Below are positions 41,626 through 47,094 of a stretch of 64,000 nucleotides of DNA, in pieces. Source of the stretch: Candidatus Calditenuis fumarioli (lineage in GTDB: Archaea; Thermoproteota; Nitrososphaeria_A; Caldarchaeales; Calditenuaceae); assembly GCA_030059665.1 (NCBI GenBank), contig JANVYR010000001.1, positions 96,001 to 160,000 on the forward strand, given 5' to 3'. Each line of letters starts with the position of its first letter. Position 1 is the stretch's first letter. Position numbers and translations under genes: made by a program. The notes below the pieces were generated by a model. It had not been told where the DNA came from, did not search any database, and worked only from the letters and a program-made list of their open reading frames with translations.

Positions 41626-43344
41626 TCAGGCCCGCAGCTCGTAAACTGGCTTCGGAGACCACCCGGGTGGAAGGATGATCTCCTCGACGGAGCGTCCCGG
41701 CGGTACCATCGGGAAGACCTTCTCGTCCCTGCTGACGGGTACGTCCAGCACGACAGCCTGGTCGTTCCGGACGGCCCTCCTGACGTGGGACCTGAGCTCC
41801 TCGTAGCTTTGGACGAAGTGCCCCTCGACCCCGAAGGCCTCCGATAGCCTGACCAGGTTCGTGATGTCGGAGAAGTCAACGTCCTTGAACCTCTTGCGGT
41901 AGAAGAGGTCCTGCCACTGCCTGACCATCCCCAGCGACCTGTTGTCGAGTATCACGGTTATGACCGGAAGGTCGTACTCGGCCACGTTGCTGAGCGTCTG
42001 GCAGGTCATCAGGAAGCTCCCGTCGCCGTCGATGTTCAGGACGGTCCTGTTGGGAGCGGCCACCTTCGCACCGAAGGCCGCAGGGAGCCCGAAGCCCATG
42101 GTCCCGAGGCCCCAGCTGCTGATGAAGGTCCCAGGCTCGAGGACGCGGTAGAAGAGCTGCGCCCACATCTGGTGCTGGCCGACGCCGGTGGTGACGATGG
42201 CTGACCTCGGCATCTCCTCCCTCAGCACCTTGACCACCTTCGCCGAGGAGAGGGTGCCCTCGTCGTTCTGGGAGAGCATGTACTCGTCATACGCAGCACC
42301 TATCTCCTTCAGACGCGATATCCAAAGAGGGTCAACCTCAGCCCTGCCCGGCCTGAGCGATCTAAGGATCGACCTGAGGACCTGCTTCGCGTCGCCGCAG
42401 AGGAAGACGTCAGGTTTCACGGCCTTCGCGTTCTCGGATGGATCGACGTCGATGTGGATGACCCTTCGCTTGCTGGAGAACTCCGCCGGCGGCCCTATGG
42501 CCCTGTCCGAGAGCCTCGTGCCGACGCAGATGGCGAGGTCCGACTCGACCAACGCGAGGTTCGCCTCGACCCTTCCGTGCATGCCCACGACGCCGAGCAC
42601 GTTCGGGTGGTCCTCTGGGACGCAGTTCTTCCCTGGAGACGTTGTGACGATTGGGGCCTGGAGCTTCTCCGAGAGTTCCAGGACCTCCGAGGTCGCGTCG
42701 CTGAAGTGAACGCCCCCGCCGACCAGGATGATCGGCTTCCTCGCTGACGACATCAGCTCGACGGCCCTCTCGATGGCTTCGGGATCCGGTACCGGAGTCG
42801 GAAGGACGAAGCCCTCTTCGGGCTCAGGGAGGCCCTCCCATTCGCCGACATCGGCCTGGAAGACGTCGCGGGGGACGTCGATGAGCGTCGGTCCGGGCCT
42901 GAGGGAGATCGAGCAGCGGTATGCGTTCACGAACTCCCGGTGAAGCCTGCTCGGGTCCAGAACCGTGGTGGCGTACTTCACGTGGGCCGTCACCAGACCC
43001 ACTATGTCGGCCTCCTGGAAGGCATCGGTGCCCATGAAAGAGCGGACAACCTGGCCGGTTATCGCCACGAGGGGCGAGCTGTCCATGGCCGCGTTGACGA
43101 TCCCCGTGATGAGGTTCGTCGCCCCGGGTCCGGAGGTCGCCGTCACGACTCCAGGCCTTCTCTTCACCCTGGCGTAGCCCTCTGCTGCGTGGGCAGCCTG
43201 CTGCTCGTGCTTCATCAGGAAGGACCTGATCTCCGAGTCGACCAGCGCGTCGTAGAGCGGCAGGTTGGCGCCACCGGGGATGCCGAAGACGGTGTCGACG
43301 CCGAGCCCCTCCATGGTCCTGACCAGCTTACGCGCGGCGTCCAT
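41626..43344 (-). CDS. ilvB: Acetolactate synthase large subunit
   Basis: FGIPGG, HEQ, TSGPGATN, FQEAD, GVGQHQMW, GDGSF...N ThDP motif. Confidence 0.95.
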   Translation of the reverse strand: MDAARKLVRTMEGLGVDTVFGIPGGANLPLYDALVDSEIRSFLMKHEQQAAHAAEGYARVKRRPGVVTATSGPGATNLITGIVNAAMDSSPLVAITGQVVRSFMGTDAFQEADIVGLVTAHVKYATTVLDPSRLHREFVNAYRCSISLRPGPTLIDVPRDVFQADVGEWEGLPEPEEGFVLPTPVPDPEAIERAVELMSSARKPIILVGGGVHFSDATSEVLELSEKLQAPIVTTSPGKNCVPEDHPNVLGVVGMHGRVEANLALVESDLAICVGTRLSDRAIGPPAEFSSKRRVIHIDVDPSENAKAVKPDVFLCGDAKQVLRSILRSLRPGRAEVDPLWISRLKEIGAAYDEYMLSQNDEGTLSSAKVVKVLREEMPRSAIVTTGVGQHQMWAQLFYRVLEPGTFISSWGLGTMGFGLPAAFGAKVAAPNRTVLNIDGDGSFLMTCQTLSNVAEYDLPVITVILDNRSLGMVRQWQDLFYRKRFKDVDFSDITNLVRLSEAFGVEGHFVQSYEELRSHVRRAVRNDQAVVLDVPVSRDEKVFPMVPPGRSVEEIILPPGWSPKPVYELRA

Positions 43345-43345
43345 C

Positions 43346-44872
43346 TCAGCCCCTCGCCTCCACCGACAGGGCCTGCGAGACCGCTCCCGCCACGGCCATG
43401 GCCACCGCCAGCCCCGGGTCGTGGGCTAGGCCCCTTCCCGTGAGGGTTTTGGAGTTGACAACGACCACGACCTCCGCCTCAGCGGGGTACCTGTCCGGGT
43501 CCGGCGGGACGTACAACGCCAAGTCCTCCAGGCGCACGTCGCCAACAAGCGCGCTGACCGCTCTCCTCATCGCATCGATCGAGGCGGAAACGGTCGACCT
43601 TCCGATTCCCCTGGACTCCATCCGCTCGCCCCTGACGTTGAGGACGAGGCTGCAGGCGAAGGTCTCGCCGTCCTTCGCGTACGAGATCGACTCGACGGAT
43701 ATCGATGGCTTCGAACCGTCCAATACGCCTATCACGTCCCTCAGCAGCAGCTCCTCCGTCACCCGCATCCCCATATCGCCCAGCTCCTTCACCCTCTCCA
43801 GCACGCGCCTCGTCTCCTCGTGGCTGAGGTTGAAACCGTGCTGCTTCAGGACCTCAAGCACCGCATGCGTCCCCGAGTGCTTCCCCAGCACTATCCTCCT
43901 CCTCTTACCGACGACCTCTGGCATGACCGGTTCGTACGTCGCAGGGTTGTTGATCACGCCGTGGACGTGGATACCGCTCTCGTGCGAGAAGGCGTTGTCA
44001 CCCACCACGGCCTTGTTCTTCTGGACGACCATCCCCGTCAGCCGGGAGACGAGCCGCGAGACGCTCGCCAGCTTCTCGAGCCTTATGCCTGTCTTTACGC
44101 CGTACAGCGTCTCCAGCGCCAGCACCACCTCCTCGAGGCTCGTGTTGCCAGCCCTCTCGCCGATGCCGTTCACGGTGACGTGGACGATCTCCGCTCCGCC
44201 CTCGACGCCGGCCAGCGTGTTGGCAGTTGCGAGCCCCATGTCGTCGTGGCAGTGAACGGCCACCGGAAGTCCCGTGACGCCCTTCACCTCCCTCACCAGC
44301 TCCTTCATCACCTCCGGTATCGCGACGCCCACCGTGTCCGGGATGTCGACGCTGTCCGCCCCCGCCTCTGCCGCTCCCCTGTACACCTTCAGGAGGAACT
44401 TCCTTTCGGACCTCGTGGCGTCCTCGCAGGAGAAGTGGACCGTCACGCCCCTCGACTTGGCGTACTCGACCATCTCGACGGCCCTGCTGTAGACCTCATC
44501 CGGCGTCATCCGGAGCTTGTACTTCATGTGGAGCTCCGAGGTGGCTATGAAGACGTGGACCCAGTCGACCCCAGCGTCGACGGCCCTGTCGATGTCTCCC
44601 TTCTCGCACCTGCTCAGCGCGCAGATTTTCGACGGGAGCCCGAGCCTAGCGATGGACCTGACGGCCTCCATCTCGCCCCTCGAGACCGCCGGATATCCGG
44701 CCTCGATCACCGCTACGCCGAGATCCGCCAGCGCCTCCGCTATCCTCAGCTTCTCCTCCACCCTCAGCGCCACACCGGGACTCTGCTCGCCGTCGCGCAG
44801 CGTCGTGTCGAAGACCTGGACCCTCTCCGGCAGCGATGGATTCCGTCCCAGAACGAACTCTCTCCAGACCAT
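43346..44872 (-). CDS. leuA: 2-isopropylmalate synthase (or citramalate synthase) with regulatory domain
   Basis: DTTLRDGEQ, HCHDD.G, NGIGERAGN, HESGIH; SD GAGGTGA precedes ATG 44872. Confidence 0.85.
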   Translation of the reverse strand: MVWREFVLGRNPSLPERVQVFDTTLRDGEQSPGVALRVEEKLRIAEALADLGVAVIEAGYPAVSRGEMEAVRSIARLGLPSKICALSRCEKGDIDRAVDAGVDWVHVFIATSELHMKYKLRMTPDEVYSRAVEMVEYAKSRGVTVHFSCEDATRSERKFLLKVYRGAAEAGADSVDIPDTVGVAIPEVMKELVREVKGVTGLPVAVHCHDDMGLATANTLAGVEGGAEIVHVTVNGIGERAGNTSLEEVVLALETLYGVKTGIRLEKLASVSRLVSRLTGMVVQKNKAVVGDNAFSHESGIHVHGVINNPATYEPVMPEVVGKRRRIVLGKHSGTHAVLEVLKQHGFNLSHEETRRVLERVKELGDMGMRVTEELLLRDVIGVLDGSKPSISVESISYAKDGETFACSLVLNVRGERMESRGIGRSTVSASIDAMRRAVSALVGDVRLEDLALYVPPDPDRYPAEAEVVVVVNSKTLTGRGLAHDPGLAVAMAVAGAVSQALSVEARG

Positions 44873-44882
44873 CTCGATCACC

Positions 44883-44951
44883 TCAGAGGAGGAGCAGCGG
44901 GGAGGGCGCCTCGATCACGCTACTCGTCGCGCACCCCAGGAACGAGCTCAT
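44883..44951 (-). CDS. Putative leucine leader peptide MSSFLGCATSSVIEAPSPLLLL
   Basis: 22-codon uORF ending CTG CTC CTC CTC TGA; the stop overlaps the leuA SD. Alternative GTG start at 44918. Confidence 0.55.
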   Translation of the reverse strand: MSSFLGCATSSVIEAPSPLLLL

Positions 44952-45207
44952 TCGGGACCAAGCAATACAGCCCCACCCGCTTGCTCCAACGTCAGAAACC
45001 GGCCTGATTTAAACCTACGCTTAGGAGCGTGCCGGTCCTATCCCAGAGGGGAACTTGTCCCGCAGCGCTCCACGAACAAACTGCGAACGACCTGCGAGGA
45101 TTCCCGGATCGATGGGGGTACAACGACACGGGCGATCGCGGCCTGTCGGCCTCGTGATTGCTCAGCTCTCTTTGCGTTTTTTACCGCGAAGGGAACCCCA
45201 TCACCGG

Positions 45208-47094
45208 ATGGAGGGCCCTGTGATACGGAGGCTGATCCGAGAGGCGAGCGAGGCCCTCGAGGCCGCCGGCCTGAAGGACCCGAAGGTGACGCTGACGAAG
45301 TCAGTGAAGTTCGGACTCCTCACGTCCACTTCGTCCTTCGAGGAGGCCCGCAGGACAGGCGTGGATCCCATGGAGAGGGCGAGGTCGGTCCTGGGGCAGC
45401 TCAGGCTTCCGGAGGGCTCGCTGCTCGAGAAGGTCGAGGCCGCACCTCCAGGTTACATCAACTTCCATCCCAGCTGGGGCGAGCTGGCCCGCGCGGTGGT
45501 GAGCGAGGTCCTCGCAGCTCCGGACGCTTACTTCAGGGTTGAGGACGGACCGAGGGAGGTCGTGGTCGAGCACACGAGCGTCAACCCCAACAAGGCGCTC
45601 CACATAGGCCACGCGAGGAACGTCTGCATCGGCGACACGATAGCCCGGGTGATGAGGAAGGCCGGTGCGAGGGTTCTGGTGATCAACTACGTCGACGACA
45701 GCGGCGTCCAGATGGCGGAGCTCCTCCTCGGCTTCCGGCTCCTCGGTTACCCGCTCGAGCCGAGGGAGGGGATGAGGTTCGACGAGTACTGCGGCGACGT
45801 CGTCTACGTCGAGGTCAACAGGAGGGCTGAGGCGGATCCGGAGGTCGAGAGGCAGAGGAGGGAGATAGCGAGGAGGATCGAGCAGAGGGGGACCGAAGAG
45901 TTCGAGCAGGCCAGGAGGGTGGCGCTGATGGTCCTCAGGGACCAGCTCAAGACGACCTCGAGGCTCGGTGCGACGTACGACCTGCTGGTCAGGGAGAGCG
46001 ACGTGGTGGTCACGGGCCTCTGGGCCGAGGCCTTCCGGAGGATGAAGGAGGCCGGACTGGTCAGGTTCGTTGAGGAGGGCCCCAAGAAGGGTTGCTGGGT
46101 CGTGGACCTCTCCGGACACCCGGTCCTCTCGAAGGAGGGAGACGAGGTCTTGGTCAAGAGCGACGGCGCAACCACCTACGTCGCGAGGGACATAGCGTTC
46201 GCGATGTGGAAGATGGGCGCGTCGGAGACGAGGCTCCTCTTCAGGCGCATCGAGCTCGACGGCCAGACCGTCACGATGTCCGACGTCGAGGGCGAGGACC
46301 TCGGGCCCTTCAGATCCGATCTGGTGGTGACGGTGGTGGACTCGAGGCAGAGGAGGCCGCAGGAGGTGGTCAGGTACGCGCTGGAGAGGATGGGCGTCAA
46401 GGGCAGGTACGTCCACTACTCGTACGAGCCGGTTGCCCTCAGCAGGAGGTCGGCGGAGCTCCTGGGAGTGAAAGCCGAGGGCGAGGTGGTCCACATGAGC
46501 GGCCGGAGGGGACTGTACTTCAAGGCGGAGGAGGTGTTAGACAAGCTGAAGGAGGTCGCGGCCCGCGAGACAAGGGCCAGGAGGCCCGATTGGAGCGAGG
46601 AGAAGGTGAGGGAGGTGGCCGAGGCGCTCGCGGTGGGAGCGTTCAGGTACGGCATGCTGCGGATCGAGAGCGACCGTCAGATCGTCTTCGATCTGGAGGA
46701 GTCGCTCCGCCTCGAGGGAGACACCGGACCATACCTCCAGTACTCGGTCGTGAGGGCGAGGAAGATCCTGCAGAAGGCCAGGGAAGCGGGAATCGGACAG
46801 ATCGCCCCCGATCGCTCACCACCGGCCGAGCTGAGCGAGCACGAGCTGCAGCTGGTCAGGGAGCTCGCGGTGACGCCGCTGGTGATGGAGGAGGTGGTCA
46901 GGACGCTCTACATCAGGTCGCTCGTGACCCACGCGAGGAACCTCGCCATGCGCTTCAACGAGTTCTACGAGCGGTGCCCGGTCATCGGCAGCGGCGAGTG
47001 GGAGGGTTTCAGGCTCTCGCTGGTCGGCGCTTACGATCGGATCGAGTCGAGGCTGCTGGAGCTCCTCGGCATACCGGTGCTCGACGAGATCTGA
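45208..47094 (+). CDS. argS: Arginyl-tRNA synthetase
   Basis: PPGYINF, EHTSVNPNKALHIGHARN (HIGH), GDTGPYLQY, FNEFY. Confidence 0.95.
   Translation: MEGPVIRRLIREASEALEAAGLKDPKVTLTKSVKFGLLTSTSSFEEARRTGVDPMERARSVLGQLRLPEGSLLEKVEAAPPGYINFHPSWGELARAVVSEVLAAPDAYFRVEDGPREVVVEHTSVNPNKALHIGHARNVCIGDTIARVMRKAGARVLVINYVDDSGVQMAELLLGFRLLGYPLEPREGMRFDEYCGDVVYVEVNRRAEADPEVERQRREIARRIEQRGTEEFEQARRVALMVLRDQLKTTSRLGATYDLLVRESDVVVTGLWAEAFRRMKEAGLVRFVEEGPKKGCWVVDLSGHPVLSKEGDEVLVKSDGATTYVARDIAFAMWKMGASETRLLFRRIELDGQTVTMSDVEGEDLGPFRSDLVVTVVDSRQRRPQEVVRYALERMGVKGRYVHYSYEPVALSRRSAELLGVKAEGEVVHMSGRRGLYFKAEEVLDKLKEVAARETRARRPDWSEEKVREVAEALAVGAFRYGMLRIESDRQIVFDLEESLRLEGDTGPYLQYSVVRARKILQKAREAGIGQIAPDRSPPAELSEHELQLVRELAVTPLVMEEVVRTLYIRSLVTHARNLAMRFNEFYERCPVIGSGEWEGFRLSLVGAYDRIESRLLELLGIPVLDEI

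Follow-up and report, generated by a model that had tools for sequence, protein, structure and literature searches.

The window analysed here is a stretch of 64,000 nucleotides (nt) from the archaeon Candidatus Calditenuis fumarioli of the order Caldarchaeales (assembly GCA_030059665.1, contig JANVYR010000001.1, positions 96,001 to 160,000 of the forward strand), and on its minus strand it carries leuA and ilvB, two adjacent genes of branched-chain amino-acid synthesis. We found that leuA is preceded by a leader whose single long open reading frame (ORF) begins at an invariant motif, ends in a leucine-codon run and has its stop codon built into the Shine-Dalgarno (SD) sequence of leuA. Comparison of related leaders showed conservation of both frame and run, as well as a fixed geometry. 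Our preferred explanation, which we hold with moderate confidence, is that the leader ORF is translated, that it gauges the supply of charged tRNA-Leu (or of charged tRNA-Ile and tRNA-Val in some genera) and that it thereby sets the translation of leuA and ilvB.

To compare the leaders, we collected the regions upstream of leuA from 41 Caldarchaeales genomes, from contigs of genomes in GTDB and from metagenome contigs. After removal of duplicates there were 47 leaders, to which six further distinct ones were added, and 43 distinct leaders bear the motif. The motif-bearing leaders belong to family f1 (Calditenuaceae), to family f4 and to genera g9, g13 and g14 of family f3; the leader of the window itself is called G000. 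The gene order is also retained: of 47 unique leader loci, 44 have a sequence encoding the N-terminus of IlvB after leuA, and the contigs of the other three end early. The element was absent where leuA follows another gene, namely in family f2, genus g15 and Nitrososphaerales, and it was absent in Bathyarchaeia as well. The genes behind the leader thus encode the enzyme that opens the leucine branch and the first one shared by leucine, isoleucine and valine synthesis, which fits a sensor rich in these three amino acids.

All of the leaders in the three groups share one architecture, in which a TATA-like box is followed by GGTG(G)-N5-8-TATTGCTY. In the window, the invariant motif TATTGCTT lies at 44960-44967 (minus strand) and can be divided in two ways, as ATT-GCT (44966-44961) in the leader frame and as TTG-CTT (44965-44960) in the +1 frame. 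The core TATTGCT was invariant in an alignment of 25 sequences (A1) and was found in all 43 motif-bearing leaders, the full form being TATTGCTY. An SD-like GGTG stands 5-8 nt before the ATT in every one of these leaders, which is near the 6-nt gap between GGTG and ATG in leuA itself. Further upstream, a TTTAAA at 45013-45008 (minus strand), which the initial annotation had pointed out, lines up with boxes in the matching place in relatives; these read TTTATATA, GTATAAAT or TTTAAAT and lie 46-52 nt upstream of the ATT motif in the several leaders counted by hand. From the position of this box, transcription of the leader mRNA is predicted to start at about 44982-44987. The distance of 46-52 nt from the TATA-like box to the ATT is too long for a leaderless reading of the leader ORF, which was rejected. 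The pattern GGTG-N5-9-ATTGCT has 11 matches in this genome, and only the one at leuA has the architecture described above. When the motif pattern was searched for in 76 genomes of the order, the matches apart from the leuA copy were at the level of a reversed-pattern control.

The frame set by this motif begins at the ATT at 44966 and runs through 27 codons and a TGA to 44883 (44883-44966, minus strand); it would encode (M/I)AWSRMSSFLGCATSSVIEAPSPLLLL. In 43 of 43 distinct leaders the ATT is in frame with the distal stop and the frame is open throughout. This is the case for ORFs of 11 different lengths (24, 25, 27, 28, 30, 31, 32, 33, 34, 37 and 47 codons), the middle part of which is unconserved. 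The other two frames close, the +1 frame after 5-10 codons and the +2 frame after 4-56 codons in the 30 leaders measured. Leaders L007 and L008, L012 and L013, and L012 and L019 each differ by one 3-nt gap, and several small indels between G000 and L120 add up to 3. Because only translation depends on threes, we took the multiple-of-three distance from motif to stop, together with these frame-keeping indels, to mean that the frame is read. The position of the end is also constrained: the frame of 36 of the 43 leaders ends at -12 to -19 relative to leuA, that is, on or just before its SD with the stop 9-16 nt before the ATG, and does so in a Leu/Ile/Val run. Of the remaining seven, six are f4 leaders whose frame extends to +11 and thereby shares 14 nt with leuA, and one is a leader that ends at -8.

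The initial annotation had placed the leader peptide in a minus-strand ORF of 22 codons at 44951-44883 (MSSFLGCATSSVIEAPSPLLLL and a stop). This ORF exists as described and forms the 3' part of the conserved frame, the ATT of which lies 15 nt upstream of its ATG. The ATG at 44951 was rejected as the start, however: apart from this strain, only an identical metagenome contig (L115) has it, and the closest relatives, whose LeuA proteins are 88-95% identical (L006, L116-L120 and L134), contain no ATG, GTG or TTG anywhere in the frame. Candidates further upstream fared no better. An in-frame TGA stands three codons before the ATT in L011, so that an earlier start is excluded there; the GTG within GGGTGG is out of frame in G000 and, in L011, is cut off by the TGA upstream of the ATT. 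One close relative differs in its 5' part: in L134 (metagenome contig Ga0272447_1002819; LeuA 95% identical) GGGCGATCC stands in place of the SD-like GGGTGGGG, and the promoter differs. The same leader still keeps ATTGCTT, a 28-codon frame and an LLLL tail.

At its 3' end, the leader frame of the window reads four consecutive leucine codons, CTG CTC CTC CTC (44897-44886), and a TGA (44885-44883) that overlaps the leuA SD GAGGTGA (44884-44878), so that stop and SD share the sequence TGAGGTGA (44878-44885, minus strand); the ATG of leuA follows at 44872, 10 nt after the stop. Run and overlap are just as the initial annotation had them, and the conservation that its leader peptide implies was borne out: the terminal leucine run before leuA-ilvB is kept in frame across Caldarchaeales with synonymous variation (CTT, CTC, CTG, CTA and TTA, with Ile and Val codons in some genera). 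When the relatives were aligned on the leuA start, nearly all had a stretch rich in pyrimidines before T(G/A)(A/G)GGTG. Read in the frame of the stop, the tails include PPLLLL, RILLLW, LLALLK, LLLVVL, LKLIIL and ALLLL, and the Ile/Val-rich ones include LIIVVLLLLVVL and ALVLLIIIIL. Among 32 distinct tails, leucine makes up 59% of the last six codons compared with 9% of the ORF body, and leucine, isoleucine and valine together make up 72% compared with 22%. In 29 of these tails, 9-11 nt lie between the stop and the ATG. Since the Leu/Ile/Val run with a stop at or just before the SD recurs where the LeuA proteins are only 50-60% identical, the feature, as judged from these comparisons, exceeds chance.

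The codons of the run carry further information. In the 32 tails, the leucine codons were CTT (54), CTC (47), CTG (7), CTA (3), TTA (1) and TTG (1), accompanied by 13 Ile and 11 Val codons; 89% of the leucine codons are thus CUY, and this bias may reflect a second constraint at the nucleotide level. A role of rare codons was rejected, because CTC (46%) and CTG (34%) are the commonest leucine codons in the genome of G000, which also has genes for tRNA-Leu with the anticodons GAG, CAG and UAG. The C-rich composition of the segment that precedes the run accounts for the many proline codons there (APSP, PPL, EPPL). A genome-wide scan for ORFs with a run and a stop in an SD was uninformative, as its 215 matches were mostly Arg, Gly or Ser runs in GC-rich genes. 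We also observed a 9-nt direct repeat, GTGATCGAG, on the minus strand, with one copy in the leader ORF (44919-44911) and the other reaching from the last bases of the leuA SD into the spacer (44881-44873); the CTTGGTC just after the ATT (44962-44956) is able to pair with either copy. The repeat was not seen in the closest relatives and may be due to chance.

Given that there is no terminator, no match in Rfam and no supported helix that sequesters the leuA SD, a translational mechanism is the likeliest, and the fixed stop-to-start geometry points to the start site of leuA as the target. We propose that the mRNA would start about 20 nt upstream of the SD-like GGGTGGGG and that a ribosome would initiate at the invariant AUUG in the AUU register and read the 27 codons. 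If charged tRNA-Leu were scarce, this ribosome would stall at the first codon of the run, with the CUG at 44897 in its A site and a footprint of about 44912-44886, so that the C-rich segment and all of the run would be covered, up to a point just short of the leuA SD. The gap from P site to P site between the stalled ribosome and one initiating on leuA would be about 28 nt, which is roughly the spacing of stacked ribosomes. In the stalled state, the C-rich segment would be barred from pairing either with the SD of the leader, in the helix P1 described below, or with the start region of leuA; the leader SD would stay open, the leader would continue to be loaded and the leuA start region would be single-stranded. 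If leucine were plentiful, the ribosome would run on to the UGA within the leuA SD and leave, and the leader would close again through P1. Reinitiation 10 nt downstream of the stop might contribute; in Haloferax, reinitiation is 40-60% efficient at distances of 13-14 nt (PMC10666635).

The structural side of this proposal was examined with folding models. A search of positions 43000-47000 against Rfam (cmscan in E-value mode) gave no match to a leader model, the only hits being two chance-level snoRNA hits inside argS. The proposed helix P1 would join the G-rich 5' segment GGAGCAAGCGGGTGGGGC (44970-44987, minus strand), which contains the SD-like GGGTGGGG (44978-44971), to the C-rich, anti-SD-like segment GCCCTCCCCGCTGCTCC (44891-44907, minus strand), which comprises the codons for APSP and the first leucine codons. 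In G000, the duplex of GGAGCAAGCGGGUGGGGC (44987-44970) with GCCCUCCCCGCUGCUCC (44907-44891) was calculated at -33.4 kcal/mol at 37 C and -15.0 kcal/mol at 75 C, and the outer GGAGC of the 5' arm may lie upstream of the real transcription start. The arms are clade-specific, being GCGAAGGG/CCCUUCGC in genus g3, GGGUGGU/ACCACCC in L014 and GUGGGGG/CCCCCAC in genus g4, and RNAalifold at the genus level found P1 in g3. The shuffle z-scores of P1 were merely +0.5 to -2.4, with cognate arms at -18.8 and non-cognate arms at -16.3 kcal/mol. In these models P1 is plausible, not established.

Pairing at the leuA SD itself is a separate matter. According to the initial annotation, CCTC (44892-44889) of the run can pair with GAGG (44884-44881) of the SD over a 4-nt loop. 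The complementarity is real, and CCUC:GAGG is present in many leaders, but it amounts to merely 4 bp, and pairing between the run and the start region was no better than in shuffled sequences. In the model of G000, the unpaired probability of the SD at 37 C was 0.29, or 0.95 with the ribosome footprint blocked, and at 70 C it was 0.50, or 0.78 with the block; this rise was inconsistent across species. A helix sequestering the leuA SD is not supported by this modelling. Three further structural candidates were discarded: a helix between the run and codons 3-4 of leuA, suggested by RNAalifold at the genus level, was lost in the shuffle control; a T-box-like reading failed because UGGN after the motif is not conserved; and the palindrome CAAGC-N15-GCTTG, considered as a DNA operator, is not kept in genus g3. 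In addition, leaders L012-L020 of genus g3 have a small hairpin 6-25 nt after the ATT (GGGGCU/AGCUCC, GGAGGC/GUCUCC or GGAGC/GCUCC), the loop of which holds the stops of the +1 and +2 frames and the arms of which vary complementarily between species.

Several observations weigh against a leader ORF that senses charged tRNA. The most serious concern the start and the direction of the response. The conserved frame has no canonical start codon, its sole conserved in-frame candidate is the ATT, and we know of no documented case of AUU initiation in archaea. The archaeal factor aIF1 has been reported to discriminate against non-canonical starts (PMC6237735). As for the direction, a ribosome stalled in the last leucine codons or at the UGA would itself cover the SD, so that the sign of the response would depend on the position of the stall. 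Among the models, the whole leader folded no better than shuffled sequences (z = -0.25), RNAalifold on the 25 aligned leaders gave no consensus structure, the duplex energy between the run region and the start of leuA was at the shuffle level, and the modelled accessibility of the SD with and without a stalled ribosome was inconsistent between species. In family f4 the leader frame stops at +11 or -8 and lacks a terminal leucine run, and the leucine frame of Terraquivivens (genus g6 of f3) has no start candidate and a fixed spacing, and hence provides no test of the frame. Finally, a hot-spring metatranscriptome (run X6, about 5% of which was read) that contains the organism at at least 99% identity gave only 7 reads, in both orientations, on the 851 nt of 44500-45350, which are too few for start mapping and may include carried-over DNA.

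In the first of the rival explanations, the leader merely delivers ribosomes to leuA, by termination-reinitiation or by unfolding of the start region, and the leucine run is a by-product of a pyrimidine tract. Geometry speaks for such coupling, as the 10 nt from stop to start fall within the distances of about 10-14 nt, or overlap, derived from Haloferax (PMC10666635), where the reinitiation efficiency quoted above was obtained at 13-14 nt, and the f4 leaders overlap leuA by 14 nt; the share of CUY among the leucine codons agrees with it too. However, the run also contains CTG, CTA, TTA, TTG, ATT, ATC, ATA, GTA and GTT, so that it is the class of amino acid that is kept and not the pyrimidines, and the enrichment is in exactly the amino acids made by the operon. 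Coupling alone would, moreover, reduce the output of leuA under leucine starvation. We consider it unlikely. In the f4 leaders L026, L028, L029 and L203 the ATT frame is Val-rich (e.g. IASRVVCITCSSDAASVAVVFVVFPVGGFHGVA) and its stop lies 11 nt inside leuA, and, judging from their sequences, these four resemble a variant of the element of the coupling type. A structured leader RNA or protein-binding site, riboswitch-like or similar to the LEU element discussed below, in which the open frame would be incidental, is a shade less probable again. It would account for the conservation of TATTGCTY as a nucleotide sequence, down to the third base of GCT, for the complementary clade-specific arms of P1 and for the missing canonical start codon. 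It leaves unexplained why motif and stop are a multiple of three nt apart over 11 lengths and why this is the only stop-free frame, and we found no Rfam match, no consensus fold and no unusual stability.

Classical transcription attenuation, with early termination at an oligo-T tract or through aCPSF1/FttA, is in our estimate the least probable of the rival explanations, for all that the architecture resembles that of a leader peptide. The initial annotation had left open control at the level of transcription, which is unlikely here, with 10 nt from stop to ATG and no terminator; the window has neither a T tract nor room for a terminator, and its leuA start reads GAGTTCGTTCTG. AT-rich relatives do have tracts of T5-T6 13-21 nt inside leuA, but these are the Phe-Leu codons of the conserved N-terminus in AT-rich usage. 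Such tracts, of a kind able to terminate archaeal transcription, were seen at leuA codons 5-8 in L016, L017, L019 and L022 (e.g. TCTTTTTTG). Only slightly less remote is a scenario in which the long frame is never read and the ribosome translates nothing but a mini-ORF in the +1 frame, TTG CTT GGT CCC GAA TGA (44965-44948, minus strand), with a leucine codon at position 2. TTG is an accepted start codon in archaea, and TTG-CTY followed by a stop after 5-10 sense codons is present in every distinct motif-bearing leader, f4 included; the last base of the motif is only ever T or C, which is synonymous for leucine in this frame. Terraquivivens has an equivalent in a distinct 5' module, GGTGAG-CAAA-GTG AGC CAA CTC GAA TAA, that is, an SD and a 5-codon ORF with one leucine codon. 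Translation of the mini-ORF only, however, explains neither the multiple-of-three link nor the stop-free long frame nor the Leu/Ile/Val run beside the leuA SD.

The mini-ORF and the long frame might also act together. In this reading, which is speculative and in our view doubtful, though less so than any of the rivals just weighed, the AUUG would be a leucine-sensitive start with two registers. The initiator tRNA would match two of three bases either on AUU, where the next codon is GCU (Ala), or on UUG, where the next codon is CUY (Leu). With charged tRNA-Leu plentiful, complexes in the UUG register would complete the decoy ORF of 5-10 codons; with charged tRNA-Leu scarce, only the AUU register would elongate, and its ribosomes would open P1 and reach the leuA start, where they would stall or reinitiate. 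Such a start would explain the invariance of UAUUGCUY, the base that is only T or C, the missing canonical start and the universality of the mini-ORF, which extends to f4. Terraquivivens offers a parallel, as there, too, the long frame occupies the -1 frame relative to a mini-ORF that starts with GTG and bears a leucine codon; the distal leucine run is in that frame in 8 of 9 sequences.

The genes around the leader were identified as follows. leuA (43346-44872, minus strand) encodes a 2-isopropylmalate synthase of 508 amino acids with the Pfam domains HMGL-like, HCS_D2 and LeuA_dimer; it scored 553 bits against NCBIfam NF002085 (cut-off 517) and was above the cut-off of TIGR02090 as well. After a gap of 2 nt it is followed by ilvB (41626-43344, minus strand), which encodes the large subunit of a biosynthetic acetolactate synthase (TIGR00118, 625 bits, cut-off 538), and the next gene after ilvB encodes a DUF2070 protein. 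On the other side, argS diverges on the plus strand from an ATG at 45208, and the intergenic region between leuA and argS is 335 nt long. An SD-like sequence is absent upstream of argS (45165-45210, plus strand), and about 30 nt upstream there is a T-rich box, GTTTTTTAC, suggesting that the argS mRNA is leaderless and diverges from the leuA promoter region. Among the metatranscriptome reads, one X6 fragment (44900-45050), the first mate of which is on the minus strand, runs through the putative TATA box and 40 nt past it; it could represent an antisense or read-through transcript or a carry-over of DNA.

Sensing of amino-acid supply by a leader peptide is a textbook mechanism in bacteria. The literature that we searched contained no description of it in archaea. 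On the sequence comparisons given here, the order-wide leader of Caldarchaeales is probably a ribosome-read amino-acid gauge of the bacterial kind. It makes testable whether archaeal ribosomes serve as metabolite gauges, whether AUU or a choice of register is used at archaeal starts, and how leuA-ilvB is controlled in archaea without known regulators of branched-chain amino-acid synthesis. In enterobacterial leuL (Rfam RF00512) and in ilvL and ivbL, a short upstream ORF likewise contains a run of codons for the product of the operon and gauges charged tRNA. Translation of those leaders begins at an AUG, and they act through alternative hairpins and an intrinsic terminator located well ahead of the first gene, whereas here, in an archaeon, a terminator, an Rfam match and a conserved canonical start are all lacking, and the stop lies inside the leuA SD. 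In the ermC and cat-86 leaders, a ribosome stalled a few codons before the downstream SD opens that SD, to which the end of the leader is complementary. The stall there is caused by the antibiotic and the nascent peptide and not by a shortage of charged tRNA, and a clear hairpin sequesters the SD; in the present leader the proposed stall comes from a lack of charged tRNA and there is no clear sequestering hairpin. The infC gene of E. coli, which encodes IF3, starts with AUU, and the weakness of this start is part of the regulation. Both cases have an invariant AUU in the start position behind an SD, but infC is a full-length gene that senses IF3, and the AUU start proposed here is putative and belongs to a leader ORF.

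Two bacterial elements stand closer to the genes in question. The LEU element of Actinobacteria has an upstream ORF with a leucine run before leuA, the leucine codons of which were proposed to pair with the leuA SD, thereby controlling translation initiation; between run and SD it has a pseudoknot or hairpin that a base stem closes. Mutation of the leucine codons was reported to leave regulation unchanged, and the authors favoured a protein partner (PMC1262725). In the Caldarchaeales leader, in contrast, the run abuts the SD and encloses nothing, its pairing with the SD is limited to 4 bp and is not above the shuffle level, and the sole sizeable helix joins the SD region of the leader itself to the segment before the run. 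The upstream ORF of Corynebacterium ilvB-II, which was recognised by comparative analysis, is conserved and enriched in codons for branched-chain amino acids, as is the ORF described here; it is bacterial, has an in-frame start codon in all representatives and was proposed to act by transcription attenuation (PMC10272879). The present element lacks a terminator, an enclosed pseudoknot, a clear sequestering hairpin and a canonical start, and, as read from its sequence, it does not appear to belong to the leuL, ilvL, ivbL, ilvB-II, LEU-element or erm/cat families. Its closest architectural counterpart is the LEU element combined with attenuation of the erm/cat type, from which it is set apart by features of its own: a stop built into the SD of the regulated gene, the lack of a terminator and an invariant, non-canonical AUUG as putative start.

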